The translations under genes were made by a program, and so were the position numbers. A stretch of DNA of 63,092 bases, filler included, from Collodictyon triciliatum (Eukaryota), in assembly GCA_043381765.1 (NCBI GenBank). It is 8 parts of 8 records of this genome, joined end to end, with 100 filler letters (N's around TTAATTAATTAA, not from the genome) between each part and the next. Parts side by side here need not be neighbours in the genome. Positions count along the whole stretch, not along the records: positions 58,614 to 63,092 come from JBHJMP010003331.1; 7 more parts are not named here. One strand, written 5' to 3'. The notes under the pieces were generated by a model that did no database searches, had not been told where the DNA came from, and saw only the letters and a list, made by a program, of their open reading frames with translations. This document shows, piece by piece, positions 8,823 to 61,770 of this stretch. Positions within the stretch are counted from its first letter, which is position 1. Every line of letters starts with the position of its first letter.

Positions 8823-8922
8823 NNNNNNNNNNNNNNNNNNNNNNNNNNNNNNNNNNNNNNNNNNNNTTAATTAATTAANNNNNNNNNNNNNNNNNNNNNN
8901 NNNNNNNNNNNNNNNNNNNNNN
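8823..8922. other. Assembly gap placeholder N44-TTAATTAATTAA-N44 (same construct at about 13408, 18718, 27633, 40703, 49609, 58514)
   Basis: Identical 100-nt structure with a six-frame stop linker at seven sites, nearly always flanked by simple repeats. Confidence 0.97.
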
Positions 8923-13407: not shown

Positions 13408-13507
13408 NNNNNNNNNNNNNNNNNNNNNNNNNNNNNNNNNNNNNNNNNNNNTTAATTAATTAANNNNNNNNNNNNNNNNNNNNNNNNNNNNNNNNNNNNN
13501 NNNNNNN

Positions 13508-18660: not shown

Positions 18661-18817
18661 GTATAACACGCTTCCTTTTGTTTCATTCCCCCGCGCACCC
18701 CGCCCCCCCCCCCCCCCNNNNNNNNNNNNNNNNNNNNNNNNNNNNNNNNNNNNNNNNNNNNTTAATTAATTAANNNNNNNNNNNNNNNNNNNNNNNNNNN
18801 NNNNNNNNNNNNNNNNN

Positions 18818-45043: not shown

Positions 45044-45116
45044 GGGGATGTAGCTCAGATGGTAGAGCGCTCGCTTAGCATGCGAGAGGTAATGGGATCG
45101 ATGCCCGTCATCTCCA
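45044..45116 (+). tRNA. tRNA-Ala, anticodon AGC
   Basis: 73-nt cloverleaf: acceptor GGGGATG/CATCTCC with G3:U70, D stem GCTC/GAGC, anticodon arm CTCGC-TTAGCAT-GCGAG, T arm ATGGG-ATCGATG-CCCGT. T7 Pol III terminator at 45123-45129. Confidence 0.97.
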
Positions 45117-45280
45117 CAAATATTTTTTGCCTACCTGCGCAACCTTCACCCAACGACAGCTGTCTTTCCCTCCCCTCTCGAGCAACCATCCACCCACCGC
45201 GAATCTCCAGCGAAAGACAGGCGGACGGGAGCGGGGCAGAGCGCTGAGCTACACTTTGTTTATTTTGGGGCGCAGCAGCC

Positions 45281-46085
45281 TTACTTCTTCTTGGCAGCCT
45301 TCTTTGCGACGGCAGCAGCAGCGGCCTTTGCGGCGGGGGCAGCGGCGGCAACGGTGACGGGGGCACCGGCGGCACGCTGGGTCTTGCGGGTGCGGGCAGC
45401 CTTGTTCTTCTGGCGGCGGGCCTCGGCCTGGTCGGAGAGGGTCTTCTCGCGGGCCTTCTCGGCCTTGGCGCGGTGGATGTGCTCGACGAGGACGCGCTTG
45501 TTCTTGAAGACGTTGCCCTTGCACTTGAGGTAGAGCTCGTGGTACCTGCGGCGTTATGGGCGGGCGGTTGGACTCTGTGGGCCGGCGAAACAGCAGGGAA
45601 AGGGGAGAAGGGAGAAGGGAAAGGTGGCGCCATATGTGGAAGAGACGCAGCGGGCGGGCGCACGTACATGTGGCGGTCGATCTTCTTTGCGGCGCGGTAC
45701 TTGCGGAGCAGGCGGCGGAGGACGCGCTGGCGGCGCACCCACAGGACCTTTGTGGGCATGCGGGCGTTGGCCGTACCGCGGCGCTTACCCGTCCCGGTGT
45801 GGCGGCCTTTGCGCTTGGCCTCGTTGTTCTTGCGCACGCGCGCACGCGAGTGGACGCGCACCGGCTGGCGCACGATGTAGCCGTCCTTGACCAGCTTGCG
45901 GACATTGGCGCCTGCGTGGAGGGGGCGCGTGAGTGGCCATGCCGTGTTTGGTATCGGTGGGCGGGCTGCTTACGCGAGTGCGCCAGGGAGATCTCGCTGA
46001 CTTCGTTGGGGTCCAGCCAGACGCGGCGCTTGCCGCACTTGAGGACGGAGGCTGCCAGGCGCTTCTGCAGGCGGAGGGAGACCAT
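45281..46085 (-). CDS. RPL19: 60S ribosomal protein L19 (eL19), three coding exons
   Basis: [67 protein letters not shown]; Ala/Lys-rich tail. Very high GC3. Confidence 0.98.
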
Positions 46086-46699
46086 CTCTGGGGTGTTTCT
46101 GTGGGGAGGCGGGGGGTTGGGTGAGGTGAGTGCTGTTTGCGGGTGGAGGCACGGCTACGGCGACGGCTACGGGGCGGGTTGGCGGCTTTTGCGGCCTTGC
46201 TTGTCCGCGAGAGAGCGTGTCGTGATTGATCGGCCCGAGAGACGGACAAGGCTTCTGCCTCTCGGGAAACAGGCGGTTTTGTGAGAAGGCGACAAAGGGC
46301 CCGCGTATTCGGGGTTTACAACAGGGGTTATTGTGAGGCCTGCTCGGCCGGCAAAGGGGTCCTGCAAGGCACAGAGACCCATAGGCCGTCGGAAAGAACT
46401 CTCTCTCTCCAGGAGAAGTGAGGGAGAAAGGAAGGAAGGAAAGAACGAACGGAAAAAGGCTAAGAGGCGGGGCAAGCAAACTGTCTGCTTCAGCGGCCGT
46501 CCCAACAGATTCTTGGGTCGTCTTCGGGGACGAGGAGAGGAAACAGAAAGGGGCCCCTGGGGCGTTGTTCAGAGGCCGGCGGCTTACGTACAGGGCCGGA
46601 TGTGATGCTTCGTGTGGGCGGGGCCTCCGAGGTGGGGTGAGACAGGAAAGAGAAATTGTGGTTTGGCGAGAAAGAGGCTTTGGCCAGAGGGCAATAGAG

Positions 46700-49608: not shown

Positions 49609-49797
49609 NNNNNNNNNNNNNNNNNNNNNNNNNNNNNNNNNNNNNNNNNNNNTTAATTAATTAANNNNNNNNNNNNNNNNNNNNNNNNNNNNNNNNNNNN
49701 NNNNNNNNAAGAAAAAAACACAAATATATCTTTGAAAAAAAAAATTTTTGAGGAGAAATTATTTTTTTGATAAATAAGCCAACATTTCCATCATCTT

Positions 49798-50199: not shown

Positions 50200-53100
50200 T
50201 TAAAGAGATGTGGTTGCATCATTAAAATCTTTCATTTCTTTTTCTTTTTTTGGGAGTGTCCATTTGTTTTTCATGTAATGGGTGGCAGATGATTCCATCA
50301 CAAATGTGTAAATCGGCTGCGCAAAAGTCTCTATTTTCCCCACAAAAGACATAAGCAGAGCAGGCCCAGCTTTCAGCATAGAAACAATTGCAATCAGCGC
50401 ATTCAACAAAACAACCAGTGTGATGAGTATATATTCAGCAACCAAACTAAGGTTGGTATATCTGAATAGAAGGCTTGTCATCAAAGTGAAGTAAAGAACT
50501 GATATTGAGTAAAGTTGCGACTTCCTGAGCACATTAGACATGAATGGCTTGAAATAAAATGATGCTGAGATGATTATTAAAAGTAACCATAGTCCAAAGT
50601 AAATTTGCAAGGCCGATGTAAAGAAAATGCTGATTAAAACGACGAGTAGCTTTTGCATCATAGTAACTATTTCCCAGTAAAAGCATTCTTCAGTGTACCC
50701 ATCAACCAAAAATCGGAGTAAGTTGTAAGTGTTTGAAGCTGGATTAATCAGTGATGACCTTTTGTAAAACATGTATGCAGCTATAATAAGCGGGCCACAA
50801 ACGCAATACAGTATCACGTAAACCAGAGCAATATTTTTCCAAGCGAGGTAATTTGCATCATCACACATTATGGACATGTCAGCTTTTAAGTAATTTTCAT
50901 CACCAAATTTATCGCAACGAAATATGTTTGATATTGACGACATAATTGTTGGGTGAACAAAGAATAGCATGACCAGCATGGAAAAAATAAACTCTTGGTT
51001 CAATTTGAAGAAGGTAATGTCTCCACTATTAATTTGATTGGTTTTTAATTTCCACGCGGTTTTGACTGTTATTACAAAGAGAGCAACTCCTATCAAAATC
51101 AGAGGGGTTATCATCGAATAAAATACCTTATCATAAATTGTCATTTCAAATCTACATTCCATAGGGTACGTGTCTATTGAAAGAGAAAATGAGAAGAGAG
51201 CTGGAATTTTCATGATTGAGAATATAGTGGAACTCCAACCGACATCAAAATTGGCCAAATAAGATAAAATCTGAAAATGTGATGCAAGGGTTTTTAATAT
51301 CTGTATTTTTGCTGTCTTGGGTTGTCTTGATTGCTCTATCATAAAGAAGACGAAAACAAGAGGTGCTGCAACGCTAAGAAAAACCAAAAATCCACTTGTT
51401 CCTTGGTTGGGGCACTTGGTGCAAAAAATTCCTGTTTTTCCAAATCCTTTTTCACAAGCACCACACAAAGCCCCGGTATATCCTTCAGCACATGTATTGT
51501 TTCCTGAATTGCAGGCATCCTCATTCAAACATTTATAGGCAATATATTCCCCATCTGAACTTGGTGCCTGCCAATAGCCTGGTGCGACAATCGGCTGGCT
51601 ACTTCCGTCACAGGTAAATCCTGTTGGACAGTCTCTGCATTGCTTGTTCTTTGAGTCAAGGTATGTAAATGGAAGACACTTACATGCTTCAATGGACACA
51701 GAGCCAGTCATATTTGTGAATGAATTTATTGGACATTCTTTGCAAAAGTTTTGTTCAAAGTTATCGTTATAAGTGCTTGGTGGGCATTCATAACATTTTT
51801 TTTGCTTTTCGTACCATCCAAGTTTGCATTCACAAGTGTAATTTTTCAACTCAAACCCAGAACTACAAACACAGTCTGAAGAATTTGTCGATCCATTATT
51901 TATAGTGGTAAATTTATCTTCACACAAAAAGCAAAAGTTTGTATCATTTGCAGGTTTGTATGAACCAATTCTGCAGGGAACACATTGGTTTCCATCCTCA
52001 AATTGCCCTGGAAGACAAGTACAAACTCCATTAAATAATACATAGGAATAGATACACTCACATTCGTCAATTGATTCAGCGCCTATTTCTGTGGTTGTCG
52101 AGCGTGTGGGACAAGAGTTGCATGATGAGCTTCTCTCTGAGCTGTAACTTCCAATTGGACATGAAATGCACGATGATTGGTTTAATGAACCTGTTTTATT
52201 ATTGAATGTTCCAGCTGGACATGATTTGCATGACGCCTGACCTTCTACATCAACCCATGTACCTTTTGGACATGCAGCACATGACTCGCTTCCATTTGAG
52301 CCAGATTTTGGGTTGAATGTGCCTTTTGGACAAGCTTGACACTTTTCACATCCACTACCATCTAAATCAGATGCAAAATATCCTGGGGAACACTCTGCAC
52401 AAATTGAGCTACCTCTAACACTGTAGCTACCTGGTGGGCATGTATTGCATGAAGATATTCCAAATGAACCCTCCACATTATTGAATGTCCCAGCCGGGCA
52501 TGAGGCGCATGCGATTTTCGATTCATCTCCATATGTCCCAACAGGGCATTTCAAGCAAGAATTTGCACCTGTAGCTCCATAAGTAGTGCTGTGAGTTCCG
52601 TTGGGACATATCAAACATTCTTTTTGACCTTCAAGATCATTATATTTTCCAGGGGGACACAAATCACACACAAGCGTTCCTGGGGCTGATGAATATGTTC
52701 CCAGAGGGCAATTTTGACAGTTTCCAATGCTTGAAGAGCCTATTTTTGTATTATATGTACCTGCTGGACATAGTTCACATGATAAAGAGTTTGTCCTGTT
52801 CGAATATTGTCCAAAAGAACATGGATAGCAGAATTTTTGTCCGCTTGAACTTGAGTAAAATCCAATGGGACATTCGTCACATTTATCTTGTCCTGAGAAA
52901 CTATTAAAAGTCCCTGGTTCACACTCAATGCAAGATGATGAACTGTTGCTTTTTTTCATAGGATTGTATGTTCCAGAAGGGCACATAGTACATTCTGATT
53001 GACTGAATTTGCTATTGAAATATCCAGCAGGGCATTCAAGGCAGCTCTTCCTTCCTTCATCGGTGTTATAGGTTCCTGGTTCACACTGACTACATATAGT

Positions 53101-54519
53101 CTGTGCCTTTTTGTTATTGAATGTACCTGGTTCACATGGTAAACAATCATCTAGAGAAGAAGATCCATTTAGAGGGTTGTATGTTCCAGCTGGGCAGGAA
53201 ATGCATGAACCAACACTTGTAGATCCAATGGATGGATTATATGTCCCAGCAGCACACGAAATACATGTAGTTTGACCAATATATGGGTTATATGTTCCAG
53301 TTGCGCACAATAAGCATGATGGTTGACCAAGCGTTGGATTGTATTTACCAGCTGAGCATGGAGTACAAAATGATGTTGCTCCAGAACTATCGCTTCCTGC
53401 TGGGCATGATCGACAAGATTTGGATGTTGAATCATAAAATAGACCACTGTTACAAAGTCCCCATATTTTGATTGTATTATCAATCTCATCATACACATAT
53501 CCCCCTCCAGAAACAATTTTTGAACCATCAGGAGCAACACCAATACCATTAACATCATTTTTGTGACCAATCAATGTGCTTGTTAAAGCTCCATCAGAAA
53601 CATTCCATATTCTTACTGCGGTGTCATAACTTCCCGACACAATTTTTGAACCATCGGGAGTAACAGTAATCACGCGAAAATTAGTAAATGATATAGTTAA
53701 TGTACGGACCAAAGCCCCGTCAGATAGATTCCAAATTTTGATTGTACTATCAGCGCTTCCAGAAACGATTTTCGAGCCATCAGGAGTAACAGCAACGCTA
53801 TTAACACTATTCATATGGCCAGTTGTTGTACGAACCAAAGTTCCGTCAGATAGATTCCAAATTTTAATTGTATTATCAGCGCTTCCAGAAACGATTTTCG
53901 AGCCATCAGGAGTAACAGCAACGCTATTAACACTATTAATATGGCCAGTTATTGTACGAACCAAAGTTCCGTCAGATAGATTCCAAATTTTAATTGTATT
54001 ATCAGCGCTTCCGGAAACGATTTTCGAGCCATCAGGAGTAACAGCAACGCTATTAACACTATTAATATGGCCAGTTAATGTGCGAATCAATTCTCCATCA
54101 GAAAGATTCCAAATTATTATTGTATTATCAGTACTACCAGAGATAATGTTCGAACTGTCAGAAGTAACAACAACGCTATTAACACTATTATTGTGCCCAG
54201 TTAATGTGCGAATCAATTCTCCATCAGAAATATTCCAAATTATTATTGTATGGTCATCACTCCCGGAAATAATTTTCGAACTATCATGAGTAACAGCAAT
54301 ACTGTTAACCCAACTATTGTGGCCAGTTAATGTGCGAATTAGGAAATCATCTTGCCCTTTGACCTCAATAACTTTGCAGTGGAATATAAATCCTAGAATA
54401 AATGATTATGAAAAAGAGTTCTTTTGATCGATTAAGATAATCATATGTTCATGTAATTAAAAGGAACATAACGCACCTAGTAACAAAACAGCTGGAATGA
54501 ACCGTATGTTGATTACCAT
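50200..54519 (-). CDS. Signal peptide + 7 WD40 + GCC2/GCC3 (ephrin-receptor-like) Cys-rich repeats + about 7 TM receptor-like protein
   Basis: Exon 1 (54519-54477) and exon 2 (54392-50200) join in phase 1: MVINIRFIPAVLLLGFIFHCKVIEVKG-QDD, seven GH...W blades, many CxxCPxGTY repeats, CAEGYTGALCGAC, then hydrophobic helices with YLKADMSIMC and YTEECFYWEIV motifs. Confidence 0.9.
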
Positions 54520-58513: not shown

Positions 58514-58613
58514 NNNNNNNNNNNNNNNNNNNNNNNNNNNNNNNNNNNNNNNNNNNNTTAATTAATTAANNNNNNNNNNNNNNNNNNNNNNNNNNNNNNN
58601 NNNNNNNNNNNNN

Positions 58614-61600
58614 ACTGAAGACGCAGCGGAATATATTGATAAGGAAAAGCGGGTCTAGAAACGCTATGTCCTTCATATCTTCGAATGATGAGTACCAAAC
58701 CACGGAACCAAGGTCATGCAGGAATTTCAGAGCACTTTCGCATTGATTTTGGTCCATTTTCAGTTCTTTTTCTGCAAAATCATAGGTATCTTGAATATTC
58801 TCATACTTTTGCTGTTTTCCTTTCGATTCTAAATATTCTTTCAATCGGATATATGATTTCGGAACTCCCGTCTTGATATTCTCTAACAGCAGCATTCCAT
58901 CGTAAATCGCTTTCTTCAAATCTGAAATTCTCATCCCACTCTTGTTGCTTACTTTTAATTCTGTACTGATGAAAGTGTGCCGCTTGTTCTCTCTTTTGAT
59001 GTTGTCTATTTCTTGTTTCATTTCCTGAGCATGCGCAGGATTTTCTGTATCTTGGTGTGTTCCAGCGATTATGATTTTTGAGCCTGGTGCAAAGTCGTCA
59101 AGCATCTTTATCCAGCGGCTGAGATTGTTTTTCTCTTTGCTTCGGTCGAGTCTGTATAGAATTAAAACAAGGGCGCCGTATGATAAAAAGAATGGATGCG
59201 TCACTTGGAACTCTTCCTGTCCTCCAAAGTCCCAGATGCGAATAGATATCGGCTCTCCAGATTCTCCAAGCGCGACTTCGTGGATGTTGACTTCGACTTG
59301 CTCGATGCCATCAGTGCGCTGTCTATTTTCGTCTACAGTACTTTGAAAGCTTGTTGATTGTTGCGTGATTGACTTGGTCAGGGTTGTTTTCCCAGCCTCT
59401 CCTTCTCCAAGCAAAAGCAGTCTCCCCTGTCTCCATTTCATCATGCCATCCACAGAAGCAGTGAGGAAATCAAAAACGGCCTCCGAGCCTTGTTCAATTA
59501 CGTTCTGTGGCACGTTCTTGATTGGGTTTCCATCGATTTTGAGCCCACTTCTCAAGGTTGGAATCTTGACAAATAATAAAGGAAAAACCAGAAGTTCGAT
59601 TTACGCGAAAAAGTATGGATTTCTTTCATTTTATCCATGTGGCTGGTTGGCATGTAAGTTTTGGTTTTGAAGAAAATAGAGCATGGCGCCAGAATGGGAG
59701 GAAGTGAAAAAGAGTTCAGGGAAGACTATTGGAGCATTAAGATTCCTAAGCGCTAGTCCAGCCATTCGATCTATTAATCAAGATATAAGGATAGTTTTAC
59801 ATTTGTAAGTATATGCACATACATATTCCTTTCAGATAAACAAGCATTAAATTAAAATTCGATCTTTTTAATAAATATTCGTCGCTTTTTATATTGCTGT
59901 TATAAAGTTATATATTGAATGCATGAATGAAAGAATCTCTAACTAGGTTGTGGGATATGTCCAGTTTTTCGAGATTTTCGAGTCTTGCAATCGATTCTGG
60001 AACCTTGGTAAGCTACGGTGCGAGTTAGTTACAGCTAATCAAGAGGTTATCGCGTAATAGTTTGATGAGTGATAAGTTAATCAAAAATACCTGGCATTGA
60101 GAGCGTTGCCATGAGTCATTTTACACAGCCAGGATATTCGGTTATTTATTAATAAAAATAAAAAAGGGTTATCGATATAATCTAAACATGAATGCAAAAC
60201 ATAACTCTAATAAATGAAACGATTAAATGTAATTTAAGTTGCCTGGTTCATGGAGATGTCTAGAAAGTGGATTGACGTCATCGCAGATAATAGAGCTGGT
60301 AATTCGGTCAGCTGTTTGTCACAATTAGATTTGAGAATAGGCTAGATAATAAATAAATCAGCTAGATGATGAAAAAAATACTACTTACCTTGTTGCAGCT
60401 GATGTTTAAGTATGTGATATTTGTCATGCACGTGATGTTGGGTGGAAGCGCAGAGATGTTCATTCCATAAAAATTCAGTGATTCAAAGCGGATTTGGGTT
60501 GCGTTCGGTGTCCAGCCTGGCTTCAGCATATCTGCATCCTATTTTATTTTTTTTTGTTTAGTATTCTTCGTTTTTTTAAAAAAAAAATTCTTTTTATTTT
60601 ATTATTGTATTAATATGACTTACTGGTACTTCGTATAACTGCAGCTTTCGGATGTGTTCAACGCCTTCTTTCCAGCACGGCAGGTTCGTGATTCCACGCG
60701 GTGCACGCTTGATGCTTATTTTGCCTCCAGACTCGATGTTGAGATTCTTCAGATTCGTGAGTACCGTGATTTGCGGTGGAAGCTCGATCTGCACACATCG
60801 TTAGTCACTTTTCTTTAATTTTTTTTTTTTATTCTTCCTTTCAACTTTTGTGCAGGACCGAGGGTAGTCACTTTTCTTTAATAAAATAAAATAAAAAAAC
60901 ACTTACAGGGTTGCTGTAAACCCAAAGCTCCGTGAGTCCCGTCAAGTGCGATATTCCCGGTGGCAGCGACGAAAGCTTGTTGCTGTGAACATCAAGCCTC
61001 TCGAGTCCCGTCAACTGTGATATTTCCGGTGGCAGCGACGAAAGCTGGTTTCCACCAACACCAAGCACTTCGAGTCCTGTCAACTGCGATATTTCCGGTG
61101 GCAGCGACGAAAGCAGATTGTTATAAACATCAAGCACTTCGAGTCCTGTCAACTGCGATATTTCCGGCGGCAGCGACGAAAGCTGGTTGTCACCAACATC
61201 AAGCAGTTCGAGTCCCGTCAACTGCGATATTTCCGGTGGCAGCGACGAAAGCTGGTTGTTTTGAACATCAAGGTGCTCGAGTCCCGTCAACCGCGGTATT
61301 TCCGGCGGCAGCAACGAAAGCCGGTTCCTGCGAACATTAAGGTACGTGAGTCCTGTCAACTGCCATATTTCCGGCGGCAGCGACGAAAGCCGGTTTACAC
61401 TAACATTAAGCACTTCGAGTCCCGTCAACTGCGATATTTCCGGCGGCAGCGACGAAAGCTGGTTGTTGTGAACATAAAGCTCCGTGATTCCTGTCAACTG
61501 CGATATTTCCGGCGGCAGCGACGAAAGCTGGTTGCCATGAACATTAAGGTGCTCGAGTCCCGTCAACCGCGATATTTCACGCGGCAGCGACGAAAGCTTG

Positions 61601-61770
61601 TTTCCATAGAGCCACAACTTCACCAAGCCTGGCAGATCCCAGACACCGGGCGGCAAAGAAGTCAGATTTTTCTTCTGGAGATTCAGCTCTGTGTGCTTTT
61701 CGAGCTCCGCGATGCTGCCGTAACCGACGATTTTTCGCAGCTCTTCGAGACGGGCGGCGCGATCAGCCAT
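58614..61770 (-). CDS. LRR-ROC-COR (ROCO) protein, 5' portion; probably disabled in one linking exon
   Basis: Exon 1 (61770-60907) holds about 11 23-aa LRRs, followed by further LRR exons. ROC motifs LLLLGEGEAGKTTL, RTDGI, IWDFGGQEEFQVTHPFFL, GTHQD, VSNKSG; COR start VPKSY...ALKFLHDLGSVVWY...FLDP. Exon 59770-59741 has TAG and a TT donor. Confidence 0.88.
60820..60864 (-). mobile_element. Family A truncated retroelement with 18-bp target-site duplication, in ROCO intron 1
   Basis: Minus strand CCCTCGGTCCTGCACAAAAGTTGAAAGGAAGAAT(A)11, flanked by the perfect direct repeat TAGTCACTTTTCTTTAAT (60802-60819 and 60865-60882). Confidence 0.85.
60907..61620 (-). repeat. 69-bp coding tandem repeat (LRR array)
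   Basis: About ten near-identical units, plus-strand core GAGTCC(C/T)GTCAACTGCGATATTTCCGG(C/T)GGCAGCGACGAAAGC. Confidence 0.95.

Follow-up and report, generated by a model that had tools for sequence, protein, structure and literature searches.

The array of leucine-rich repeats (LRR) on the minus strand of the window (the whole 63-kb stretch of DNA analyzed here) is probably, with a probability that we put at roughly 0.6, the N-terminal sensor domain of a eukaryotic ROCO gene, in which the repeat units have been homogenized and the concave face has been diversified by selection. Recent tandem expansion or homogenization of the units, combined with diversifying selection on the concave face, is well supported. 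The variability is almost entirely limited to the x positions of a homogenized scaffold, which is a known signature of fast-evolving recognition domains, and we regard the locus as a clean single example of this signature rather than a new mechanism.

Exons and domains of the array-bearing gene

Exon 1 (61770..60907, minus strand; 864 bp, 288 codons) starts with an ATG at 61770, encodes an N-terminal helical cap and 12 LRR units, and is followed by a GTAAGT donor after 60907. This exon, delimited by its open frame and translation, matched LRR_8 of Pfam at 1.6e-42 and was modeled by AF2 as a regular strand/helix repeat with a pLDDT of 81.9. The ten homogenized 69-bp units, termed U1-U10, occupy 61626..60937 (minus strand) and were characterized by repeat finding, alignment, and codon tests. 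They are flanked by a divergent unit, U0, upstream of U1 and by a partial unit, U11, which reaches the exon end at 60907.

The remaining parts of the gene lie on the same strand. Exon 2 (60624..60788, minus strand), an irregular LRR region (IELPPQITVLTNLKNLNIESGGKISIKRAPRGITNLPCWKEGVEHIRKLQLYEVP), has GT-AG borders recognized from the sequence and aligned with two related proteins, P0001 and P0002, in tblastn; a spliced contig of run X7 documents the intron downstream of it (60539-60623). Exon 3 (60389..60538, minus strand) contains LRR units, of which the match to LRR_4 (1.3e-4) is under the curated cut-off of Pfam, and its borders were set by an X7 joint, a loose end, and the reading frame. 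Exons 4 (60243..60311, minus strand; LTELPALLSAMTSIHFLDISMNQ) and 5 (59944..60012, minus strand; LTKVPESIARLENLEKLDISHNL) each encode a single 23-residue LRR in 69 bp of phase 0, the former being supported by an X7 joint and the latter by X7 joints at both ends. Exon 4 is followed by a GC-AG intron (X7 joint 60012->60243, with the ends CT..GC on the plus strand). Altogether, the spliced contigs of X7 contain three introns with GT/GC-AG ends, which indicate minus-strand transcription and the presence of spliceosomal introns in this gene.

In the stretch at 59601..59770 (minus strand), the exon whose first base in the X7 RNA contig is 59770 runs into in-frame TAGs. The TAGs (59755-59753 and 59728-59726) are 6 and 15 codons into this exon, and none of the acceptors and donors tried between 59770 and 59560 opens a join to the Roc frame. 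We rejected the reassignment of TAG, as this codon terminates 5 of the 21 open frames of at least 200 codons in the window, which also contains a 1401-codon frame without TAG. The open frame at 58614..59600 (minus strand), assigned by Pfam, PDB, and P0001, comprises the last LRR, Roc, and the first 81 positions of COR-A, and is intact over at least 329 codons until ended by a contig linker. This linker (58514..58613, N44-TTAATTAATTAA-N44), one of 8 such linkers in the window, truncates the gene in COR-A, and the rest of COR (COR-B) and any C-terminal domains are missing beyond the join; no continuation of the gene below 58614 was found in the window by tblastn with P0001 and P0002.

Judged from its domain matches, the array-bearing gene encodes an LRR-Roc-COR (ROCO) GTPase, as claimed by the initial annotation. 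In addition to LRR_8 in exon 1, Roc (PF08477) was detected at 1.6e-21 in residues 45-169 of the 314-aa frame, and COR-A (PF16095; profile positions 1-81 of 143) directly after it at 3.3e-10. Among solved structures, the Roc-COR part best matched bacterial and archaeal Roco proteins and LRRK2 (4wnr, 1.1e-22; 3dpu/6hlu, ~5e-21; LRRK2, 5e-15), and the alignment with 3dpu/6hlu covered query residues 9-312. A protein search with the Roc-COR frame yielded three matches in the longer band, the best of which shared 39% identity, and no matches in the near-length band; P0001 aligned at 39% identity over 99% of the query. The LRRs of P0001 and P0002, the closest relatives of the Roc-COR part, are ordinary and non-homogenized. 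Neither NACHT nor NB-ARC was detected by Pfam in the visible part of the gene, which lacks the C-terminus and has Roc-COR instead. P0001 bears AAA_16/AAA_22-type Pfam matches after COR, and thus the missing C-terminal part of the gene may contain a STAND-like module.

Homogenized scaffold and diversified x codons

Tandem Repeats Finder detected a period of 69 with 9.7 copies and 82% matches at 60934-61602. A 36-base unit core was found 10 times, always within the array, when up to 3 mismatches were allowed, against 0 occurrences expected in the 63-kb window (100 shuffles). In frame on the minus strand, the unit reads LxxLxVxxNxLSSLPPEISQLTG. Averaged over all pairs of the 10 units, DNA identity reached 0.92 in codons 11-23 and 0.65 in codons 1-10 (overall, 0.92-0.94 and 0.65-0.70, respectively), and the mean pairwise amino-acid identity was 0.74 (9 units). 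The scaffold codons standing among the variable ones are nearly invariant in U2-U10 (CTT, 9/9; GTT, 9/9; AAC, 8/9; CTT, 9/9), and four different codons serve the five Leu positions, each column being fixed for its own. Thus, the units are homogenized at the DNA level, and the near-invariance of ten 69-bp units including their synonymous sites, which had been noticed from the sequence, was borne out. Over 54 scaffold columns, 1-9 differences separate the members of U2-U10 from each other, while 11-14 separate U1 from them and 22-27 separate U0.

When the 23 codons are ranked by variability, the top five are precisely codons 3, 5, 7, 8, and 10. The residues listed previously for these x positions proved to be exact (position 3, K/H/E/V/Y/L/R; position 5, W/N/Y/D/G; position 7, Y/H/S/R/Q/G; position 8, G/N/V/R/D/S; position 10, K/Q/R/L). 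U2 and U7 differ at a single one of the 54 scaffold columns, yet at 6 of the 15 x columns. In x codons 5 and 10 of U2-U10, the third base is fixed and the first two bases vary. In the AF2 model, the predicted beta-strand spans unit positions 3-8, which places the variable codons in or beside this predicted strand and is consistent with their proposed role as binding-face residues.

By the Nei-Gojobori method, dN at the x codons was 0.99, while dS was 0.17 for the scaffold and 0.14 for the convex part. Inside the x codons, dS was 0.47 on roughly 3 synonymous sites, giving an omega of only about 2; thus, the large excess requires that the scaffold synonymous sites be neutral and share their genealogy with the x codons. 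Among U2-U10, the 15 x columns require at least 23 steps, whereas synonymous change in the scaffold amounts to 4 steps over 14 effective sites (binomial p of 3e-4). We further applied a GY94-type codon model with shared branch lengths to an NJ tree and a star tree, in each case including or excluding U1. The maximum-likelihood estimates were 6.8-12.6 for omega_x (about 7-13) and 0.34-0.60 for omega_scaffold, and omega_x = 1 was rejected on both trees with and without U1 (2dlnL of 41-47), in a single array of 10 non-independent units of 23 codons, in which gene conversion between units violates the tree assumption of the model. The x positions were not picked blind but equal the textbook x positions of LRR. 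Altogether, the homogenization plus diversifying selection put forward in the initial annotation is supported by both the DNA-level likeness of the units and the alignment-based dN/dS tests. A control WD40 array 7 kb away is also homogenized (94-98% identity among units 3-5), and its omega of 0.28-0.39 reflects purifying selection only.

Block-limited gene conversion followed by neutral drift was rejected as an explanation: a block-limited conversion tract cannot produce the observed interleaving, in which fixed scaffold codons and variable codons follow each other one by one.

We propose that the ten 23-residue LRRs in one exon arose by recent tandem amplification or, alternatively, that recombination inside the array (unequal crossing-over or gene conversion) keeps the units alike, with the edge units (U0, U1, U10, and U11) having escaped homogenization. 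Later substitutions have occurred almost exclusively at the outward-facing residues 3, 5, 7, 8, and 10 of the beta-strand and the following turn. These are mostly amino-acid changing, with a per-site rate several-fold over the synonymous rate of the same units, and such fast, mostly replacing substitutions point to diversifying selection on the concave binding face, in agreement with the statistics above. If the gene product works like other ROCO proteins, a ligand bound at the LRR face would regulate the Roc GTPase switch, and a role of the gene in immunity or non-self recognition is conceivable.

Alternative explanations and the extent of a possible repertoire

The array might be an ordinary adaptor-type LRR domain (similar to those of SHOC2, LRRD1, or RSU1) that was recently expanded in tandem, with x positions merely unconstrained and with neither diversification nor receptor function. 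Indeed, among solved structures the LRR domain comes nearest in sequence to LRRD1, SHOC2, and the LIC LRR proteins of Leptospira, and the window contains one array only. It is also established that the x positions are generally the least constrained in LRRs, and to our knowledge this holds for every LRR. However, neutral x positions should change at a rate near the synonymous one, and those in the array change about 6-fold faster (NG86); as omega_x = 1 was rejected, and x codons 5 and 10 of U2-U10 vary at their first two bases with a fixed third base, we consider the adaptor-type reading unlikely. The sharp localization of the changes would also be expected if a targeted mutational process (DGR-like retrohoming or local hypermutation) wrote the x-codon variation instead of selection. 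We hold this to be highly improbable, since neither a template repeat nor a second copy of the core was found in the window, the variable codons are not of the adenine-templated AAY type, and the constancy of the third base at x codons 5 and 10 fits selection on residues, not a codon-blind mutator.

Two other explanations concern the integrity of the locus. The unit number and order would be unreal if the assembly had collapsed, or made a mosaic of, paralogous or allelic arrays sharing the ~40-base core. The window was joined from contigs into a pseudo-scaffold, with breaks between contigs at simple repeats, and the environmental contigs fragment within the array and run from the core into other variable segments. 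Nevertheless, a single contig free of gaps, running from 58614 to the end of the window, contains the array, which keeps an open frame over 288 codons in an exact 69-bp register, and even a mosaic would comprise real units with the same x-limited variation; we regard such an artefact as improbable. A similarly low probability is given to the gene being a decaying or non-productive copy, with the array pattern as a relic. Both the TAGs, which are in frame when the RNA-contig splice is used, and the COR continuation not found past the contig join would fit a pseudogene, but exon 1 and the Roc/COR-A frame are intact, the scaffold omega is below 1, and spliced transcripts are present in X7. Furthermore, the region 59433-59949 is covered by metagenome contigs, each of which has 0-3 other letters and no indel listed, and thus an alternative isoform may contain the TAGs.

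Whether the diversified array, read as the sensor domain of a ROCO gene, belongs to a larger repertoire was addressed by searches of proteins and environmental contigs. A search with exon 1 recovered 2119 proteins (158-504 aa, E of 0.001 or less) among 8000 candidates scored, with a best identity of 65% among the 120 matches listed, and a further search yielded 156,821 representatives, with a best identity of 60% among the 150 matches listed; neither list of matches contained a close paralogue or orthologue of the array. In JGI metagenome contigs, an exact scan with a 27-base degenerate core gave 0 matches, and a protein-guided scan with the Roc-COR frame gave 65 pattern matches with 0 confirmed relatives. 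Contigs from four environmental runs, which are k-mer assemblies (31-mers) and possibly chimeric across the identical core, were aligned to the window and revealed splice joints as well as variant units, with none of the pieces reaching across the whole array; their unit order and the parts left uncovered are no evidence either way. Eleven of the 14 differences listed inside the array were in x codons, and 9 of the 11 were residue-changing, albeit these contigs by construction differ from the nearest window unit mainly where the units differ. A 124-nt contig of run X1 joins a U1-like segment to a U3-like one (possibly as a chimera of 31-mers, and with a paralogue indistinguishable from an allele), and several loose ends of the possibly chimeric contigs go from the core into new variable segments. 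These short contigs are only a hint of further unit variants.

The repertoire of sensors proposed in the initial annotation is not supported, in contrast to the homogenized and diversified array: only one such array is found in the 63-kb window and the JGI scans were empty. We consider it doubtful, though worth stating, that many arrays of this freshwater eukaryote share this scaffold and have their units reshuffled within a single exon between alleles or paralogues, so as to form strain-specific ROCO sensors for the recognition of non-self or parasites in the manner of fungal NLRs, with the Roc GTPase in place of the NOD module, in a lineage for which no case has been described. If so, the new variable segments on the same core in the environmental contigs would be the first trace of such a system.

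Comparison with known repeat systems

The germline VLR gene of lampreys is incomplete and is completed by somatic assembly with flanking cassettes. In contrast, the window gene is complete through the array, and neither donor LRR cassettes nor extra copies of the core outside the array were found in the 63-kb window, as all 10 core matches lie inside the array; the parallel with VLR cassettes drawn previously therefore does not extend to cassettes in the window. What the two share is variable concave-face residues on a conserved LRR scaffold, as VLRs are described in the available text of Zambounis et al. (2012, PMC3341825).

The brown-alga LRR-ROCO proteins (Ectocarpus and Saccharina) are candidate immune receptors according to the available parts of two reports (Zambounis et al., 2012, PMC3341825; Front Plant Sci 2024, PMC11378527). 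As far as described there, they resemble the window gene in the N-terminal LRR followed by Roc-COR, in the units of ~23-24 residues with a conserved scaffold, and in the positive selection on the concave beta-sheet face, to which the omega_x of 6.8-12.6 corresponds here. In the brown algae, each LRR is a separate 72-nt exon, and the diversity is ascribed to exon shuffling in a clustered family (PMC3341825, PMC11378527). In contrast, U0-U11 share a single 864-bp exon in the window gene, in which only exons 4 and 5 (69 nt, phase 0) show the layout of one LRR per exon. Exon shuffling of the Ectocarpus type is thus inapplicable to the ten units, and any shuffling here must be tandem-repeat recombination.

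In fungal NLRs such as Podospora HNWD, the WD40, ANK, and TPR repeats are highly internally conserved (Dyrka et al., 2014, PMC4986451). Like the array, these repeats are, in the available text of that report, tandem units kept alike inside one coding exon by concerted evolution, with positive selection limited to a few binding-surface codons (PMC4986451). LRR is absent from the fungal NLRs as far as reported there (PMC4986451), and the window gene differs in both the repeat, which is LRR, and the visible signaling module, which is Roc-COR and not NACHT or NB-ARC. The amino-acid identity of the units given above (0.74) is also lower than the internal identity of >85% over at least 100 residues by which HIC repeats are defined (PMC4986451).

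The pattern has therefore already been published, within the parts of these reports available, for brown-alga ROCOs and fungal NLR repeats. If the gene belongs to a real sensor family, it would represent a further eukaryotic lineage in which ROCO GTPases look like rapidly evolving receptors, with a different genetic route (tandem units in one exon versus one exon per unit). Such a family would also connect the cases in eukaryotes with bacteria, whose LRR-Roc-COR proteins have very similar homogenized LRR arrays; on these bacterial arrays, a limited literature search found no publication.

Homogenized arrays were found in database LRR and LRR-Roc(-COR) proteins, namely P0017 and P0106 (both Nostoc according to NCBI), P0140 and P0129 (ENA), and P0220 (JGI), of which P0140 and P0129 are LRR-Roc-COR. 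These proteins share with the window gene an N-terminal cap, LRR, and Roc, as well as nearly the same unit (NQLSSLPPEISQLxxLxxLxLxxN). On the other hand, their best identity to the window exon is 60-65% among the matches listed, and the window gene has introns. Positions 3, 5, 7, and 8 are again mainly the most variable ones in these protein sequences, including those of Nostoc, and thus the x-limited variability is not a speciality of protists.

Exon 1 of the ROCO gene and its repeat units

The identification of the locus as a ROCO gene in the initial annotation held in the Pfam search, which found LRR_8 in exon 1 (1.6e-42), and Roc (1.6e-21) and COR-A (3.3e-10; the first 81 positions only) in the open frame 59555..58614. 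Exon 1 lies on the minus strand, with its ATG at 61770 and its GTAAGT donor following 60907; its 288 residues form twelve leucine-rich repeats (LRRs) of 23 residues each behind a short helical cap at the N terminus. Tandem Repeats Finder delineated an array of period 69 at 60934-61602 (9.7 copies, 82% matches). The ten units of the array, U1-U10 (61626..60937, minus strand), are preceded by U0 and followed by the partial U11, both of which are far more divergent. At three or fewer mismatches, the 36-base unit core was matched 10 times in the 63-kb window, where none is expected by chance, and all 10 matches fell within the array; thus, no further array of the core was found in the window.

The units were claimed to be alike at the DNA level, synonymous sites included, and to vary in the residues listed at unit positions 3, 5, 7, 8, and 10 (hereafter the x codons, the rest being the scaffold); the lists proved exact when the units were rechecked, and the likeness was evident in the fixed scaffold codons of U2-U10. 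The scaffold codons interleaved with the x codons were CTT (9/9), GTT (9/9), AAC (8/9), and CTT (9/9). The five Leu positions are encoded by four codons (CTC, CTT, CTT, CTG, and TTG), with a single codon fixed per column, a pattern that codon bias cannot explain. Between U2 and U7, one of the 54 scaffold columns differs versus 6 of the 15 x-codon columns. More diverged edge units are expected in arrays homogenised by unequal exchange, and the inner units were indeed less diverged than the edge units, fitting such exchange. The scaffold synonymous variants at unit codons 15, 19, and 22 (61626-60937) are CCG/CCA, TCG/TCA, and ACG/ACA, respectively, all CpG-to-CpA, and all four combinations of the variants at codons 15 and 22 were read by eye across the units. 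Either recurrent CpG mutation or an exchange among the units could account for this pattern.

Selection at the x codons

By the Nei-Gojobori method applied to the 10 units, dN and dS were 0.99 and 0.47 at the x codons (the latter itself raised, on approximately 3 sites), 0.067 and 0.17 in the scaffold, and 0.058 and 0.14 at the convex codons 11-23. Counted conservatively, the minimum number of steps in U2-U10 was 23 in the 15 x columns versus 4 (synonymous only) at the 14 effective synonymous sites of the scaffold (binomial p = 3e-4). We then fitted our own GY94-type codon model, in which branch lengths and kappa were common to both codon classes. The diversification inferred in the initial annotation was supported, with omega_x of 6.8-12.6 and omega_scaffold of 0.34-0.60, and omega_x = 1 was rejected by a likelihood-ratio test (2dlnL of 41-47), albeit from a single array, whose 10 short units are not independent of one another, and under a tree model violated by recombination. 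The outcome held whether an NJ or a star tree was used and whether U1 was kept or omitted, and also when the x class was widened to include position 2; this class comprises textbook LRR positions, yet was not picked blind. The excess at the x codons is approximately 2-fold by the yardstick of x-codon dS and 6- to 12-fold by that of the scaffold.

A conversion tract skipping a variable block, without selection, was ruled out, because fixed and variable codons alternate codon by codon. As a control, the WD40 array at 53695-54338 (126-bp units) is homogenised (94-98% identity among units 3-5) and displayed an omega of 0.28-0.39 and no hypervariable columns. An AlphaFold2 model of exon 1, run on the single sequence, placed beta-strands at unit positions 3-8 (pLDDT 81.9, pTM 0.78). 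Positions 3, 5, and 7 are thus predicted to face outward by standard LRR geometry, while position 8 is at the strand end and position 10 in the next turn of the model. Altogether, in this single array, homogenisation combined with diversifying selection at the binding face has good support.

Relatives of the array

Short freshwater and subsurface metagenome contigs matched portions of the ROCO locus, and some of the pieces listed differed from it at 0 of 233 letters (59717-59949), 0 of 247 (59963-60210), and 2 of 317 (59433-59749). The only hints of the candidate receptor repertoire proposed in the initial annotation came from contigs. Some contigs, at their loose ends, ran past the conserved core into variable segments missing from the window. 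One such segment carried a U1-like unit with four of the five x codons changed but the idiosyncratic scaffold codons of U1 retained, and a spliced contig of the RNA run X7 bore another last unit ahead of exon 2. Among the 14 differences listed within the array, 11 were in x codons, of which 9 alter the residue. These segments may represent paralogues, alleles, or related species. The unit order in the contigs is no evidence, since chimeras across the identical core can arise when contigs are assembled from 31-mers. Two scans of JGI metagenome contigs revealed no confirmed relative, and no relative of exon 1 with >65% identity was among the protein matches listed.

Judged from protein sequences, the array is not very special, as both its unit and the x-limited variability already occur in database proteins. 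The most variable positions were 3, 5, 7, 8, and 10 in P0220 (a JGI LRR protein; 16 units found), 2, 3, 5, 7, and 8 in P0140 (an LRR-Roc-COR protein of an ENA record; 22 units), and 3, 5, 7, 8, and 13 in P0129 (an LRR-Roc-COR protein on a 6.6-Mb contig; 23 units). Two Nostoc proteins, P0017 and P0106, possess NNQLSSLPPEISQLS units. A limited literature search turned up no paper that describes bacterial ROCO proteins with homogenised LRR arrays. Concave-face residues are under positive selection in the LRR-ROCO genes of Ectocarpus (PMC3341825) and of Saccharina and other brown algae (PMC11378527), where every LRR is encoded by an exon of its own and shuffling of these exons is put forward (PMC3341825, PMC11378527). 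In contrast, the array units here lie together in a single exon, yet two downstream LRRs occupy exons 4 and 5 in the brown-algal layout. The closest mechanistic analogue of the single-exon array comes from fungal NLRs, whose WD40, ANK, and TPR repeats show concerted evolution and positive selection at a few interface codons (PMC4986451).

The ROCO gene and its surroundings

Spliced X7 contigs supported three minus-strand introns with GT-AG or GC-AG ends, at 60539-60623, 60013-60242 (GC donor at 60241-60242), and 59771-59943, and a loose contig end fits a fourth at 60312-60388. These introns mark the source as eukaryotic. The derived minus-strand exons are exon 1 (61770-60907), exon 2 (60788-60624), exon 3 (60538-60389), exons 4 (60311-60243) and 5 (60012-59944), each of 69 bp, phase 0, and one LRR, and a next exon starting at 59770. 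The last, whose splice was seen in RNA contigs, is interrupted by two TAG codons in its frame (59755-59753 and 59728-59726), and no open join from it to the Roc frame was found. A non-productive isoform, an unrecognised splice, and a pseudogene are the candidate explanations for these TAGs; TAG reassignment is unlikely. Metagenome contigs cover 59726-59755 with few differences.

The closest relatives of the Roc-COR part were two transcriptome proteins (39% and 32% identity), of Diphylleia rotans per EukProt. The closest, P0001 (1896 aa), has AAA_16/AAA_22-type P-loop Pfam matches after COR, which would make it a fusion of a ROCO with a STAND-like NTPase, and has LRRs that are not homogenised. 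The best solved relatives of the Roc-COR part were 4wnr, 3dpu/6hlu/8r4b, and LRRK2, and those of the LRR part were LRRD1, SHOC2, and Leptospira LIC proteins. 4wnr and 3dpu/6hlu, named 'Leucine-rich-repeat protein' and 'Rab family protein' in PDB, are archaeal and bacterial Roco proteins, respectively.

The gene is cut within COR-A by the contig join N44-TTAATTAATTAA-N44 at 58514-58613, beyond which tblastn with the two closest relatives as queries gave no match. There are seven such 100-bp joins (8823-8922, 13408-13507, 18718-18817, 27633-27732, 40703-40802, 49609-49708, and 58514-58613), mostly beside simple repeats, and their linker is a six-frame stop; a gap of 395 N (30879-31273) and a single N (36543) were also found. 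The window represents a pseudo-scaffold in which contigs have been put in order, and adjacency across the joins is therefore not proven. On the minus strand at 50200-54405, an open frame of 1401 codons lacks an early ATG and encodes 7 WD40 stretches, including the 126-bp array, 19 cysteine-rich repeats of the Ephrin_rec_like type (2e-83), and a C-terminal part that is hydrophobic and resembles several membrane spans. This frame may belong to the ROCO gene, from which the join and 4 kb of AT-rich DNA divide it, or may represent a gene of its own. A GC-rich open frame at 45055-46154 (minus strand) looks, to us, like ribosomal protein L19e. GC content ranges from approximately 0.28 to 0.53 between 2-kb bins of the window, and microsatellites are very dense.
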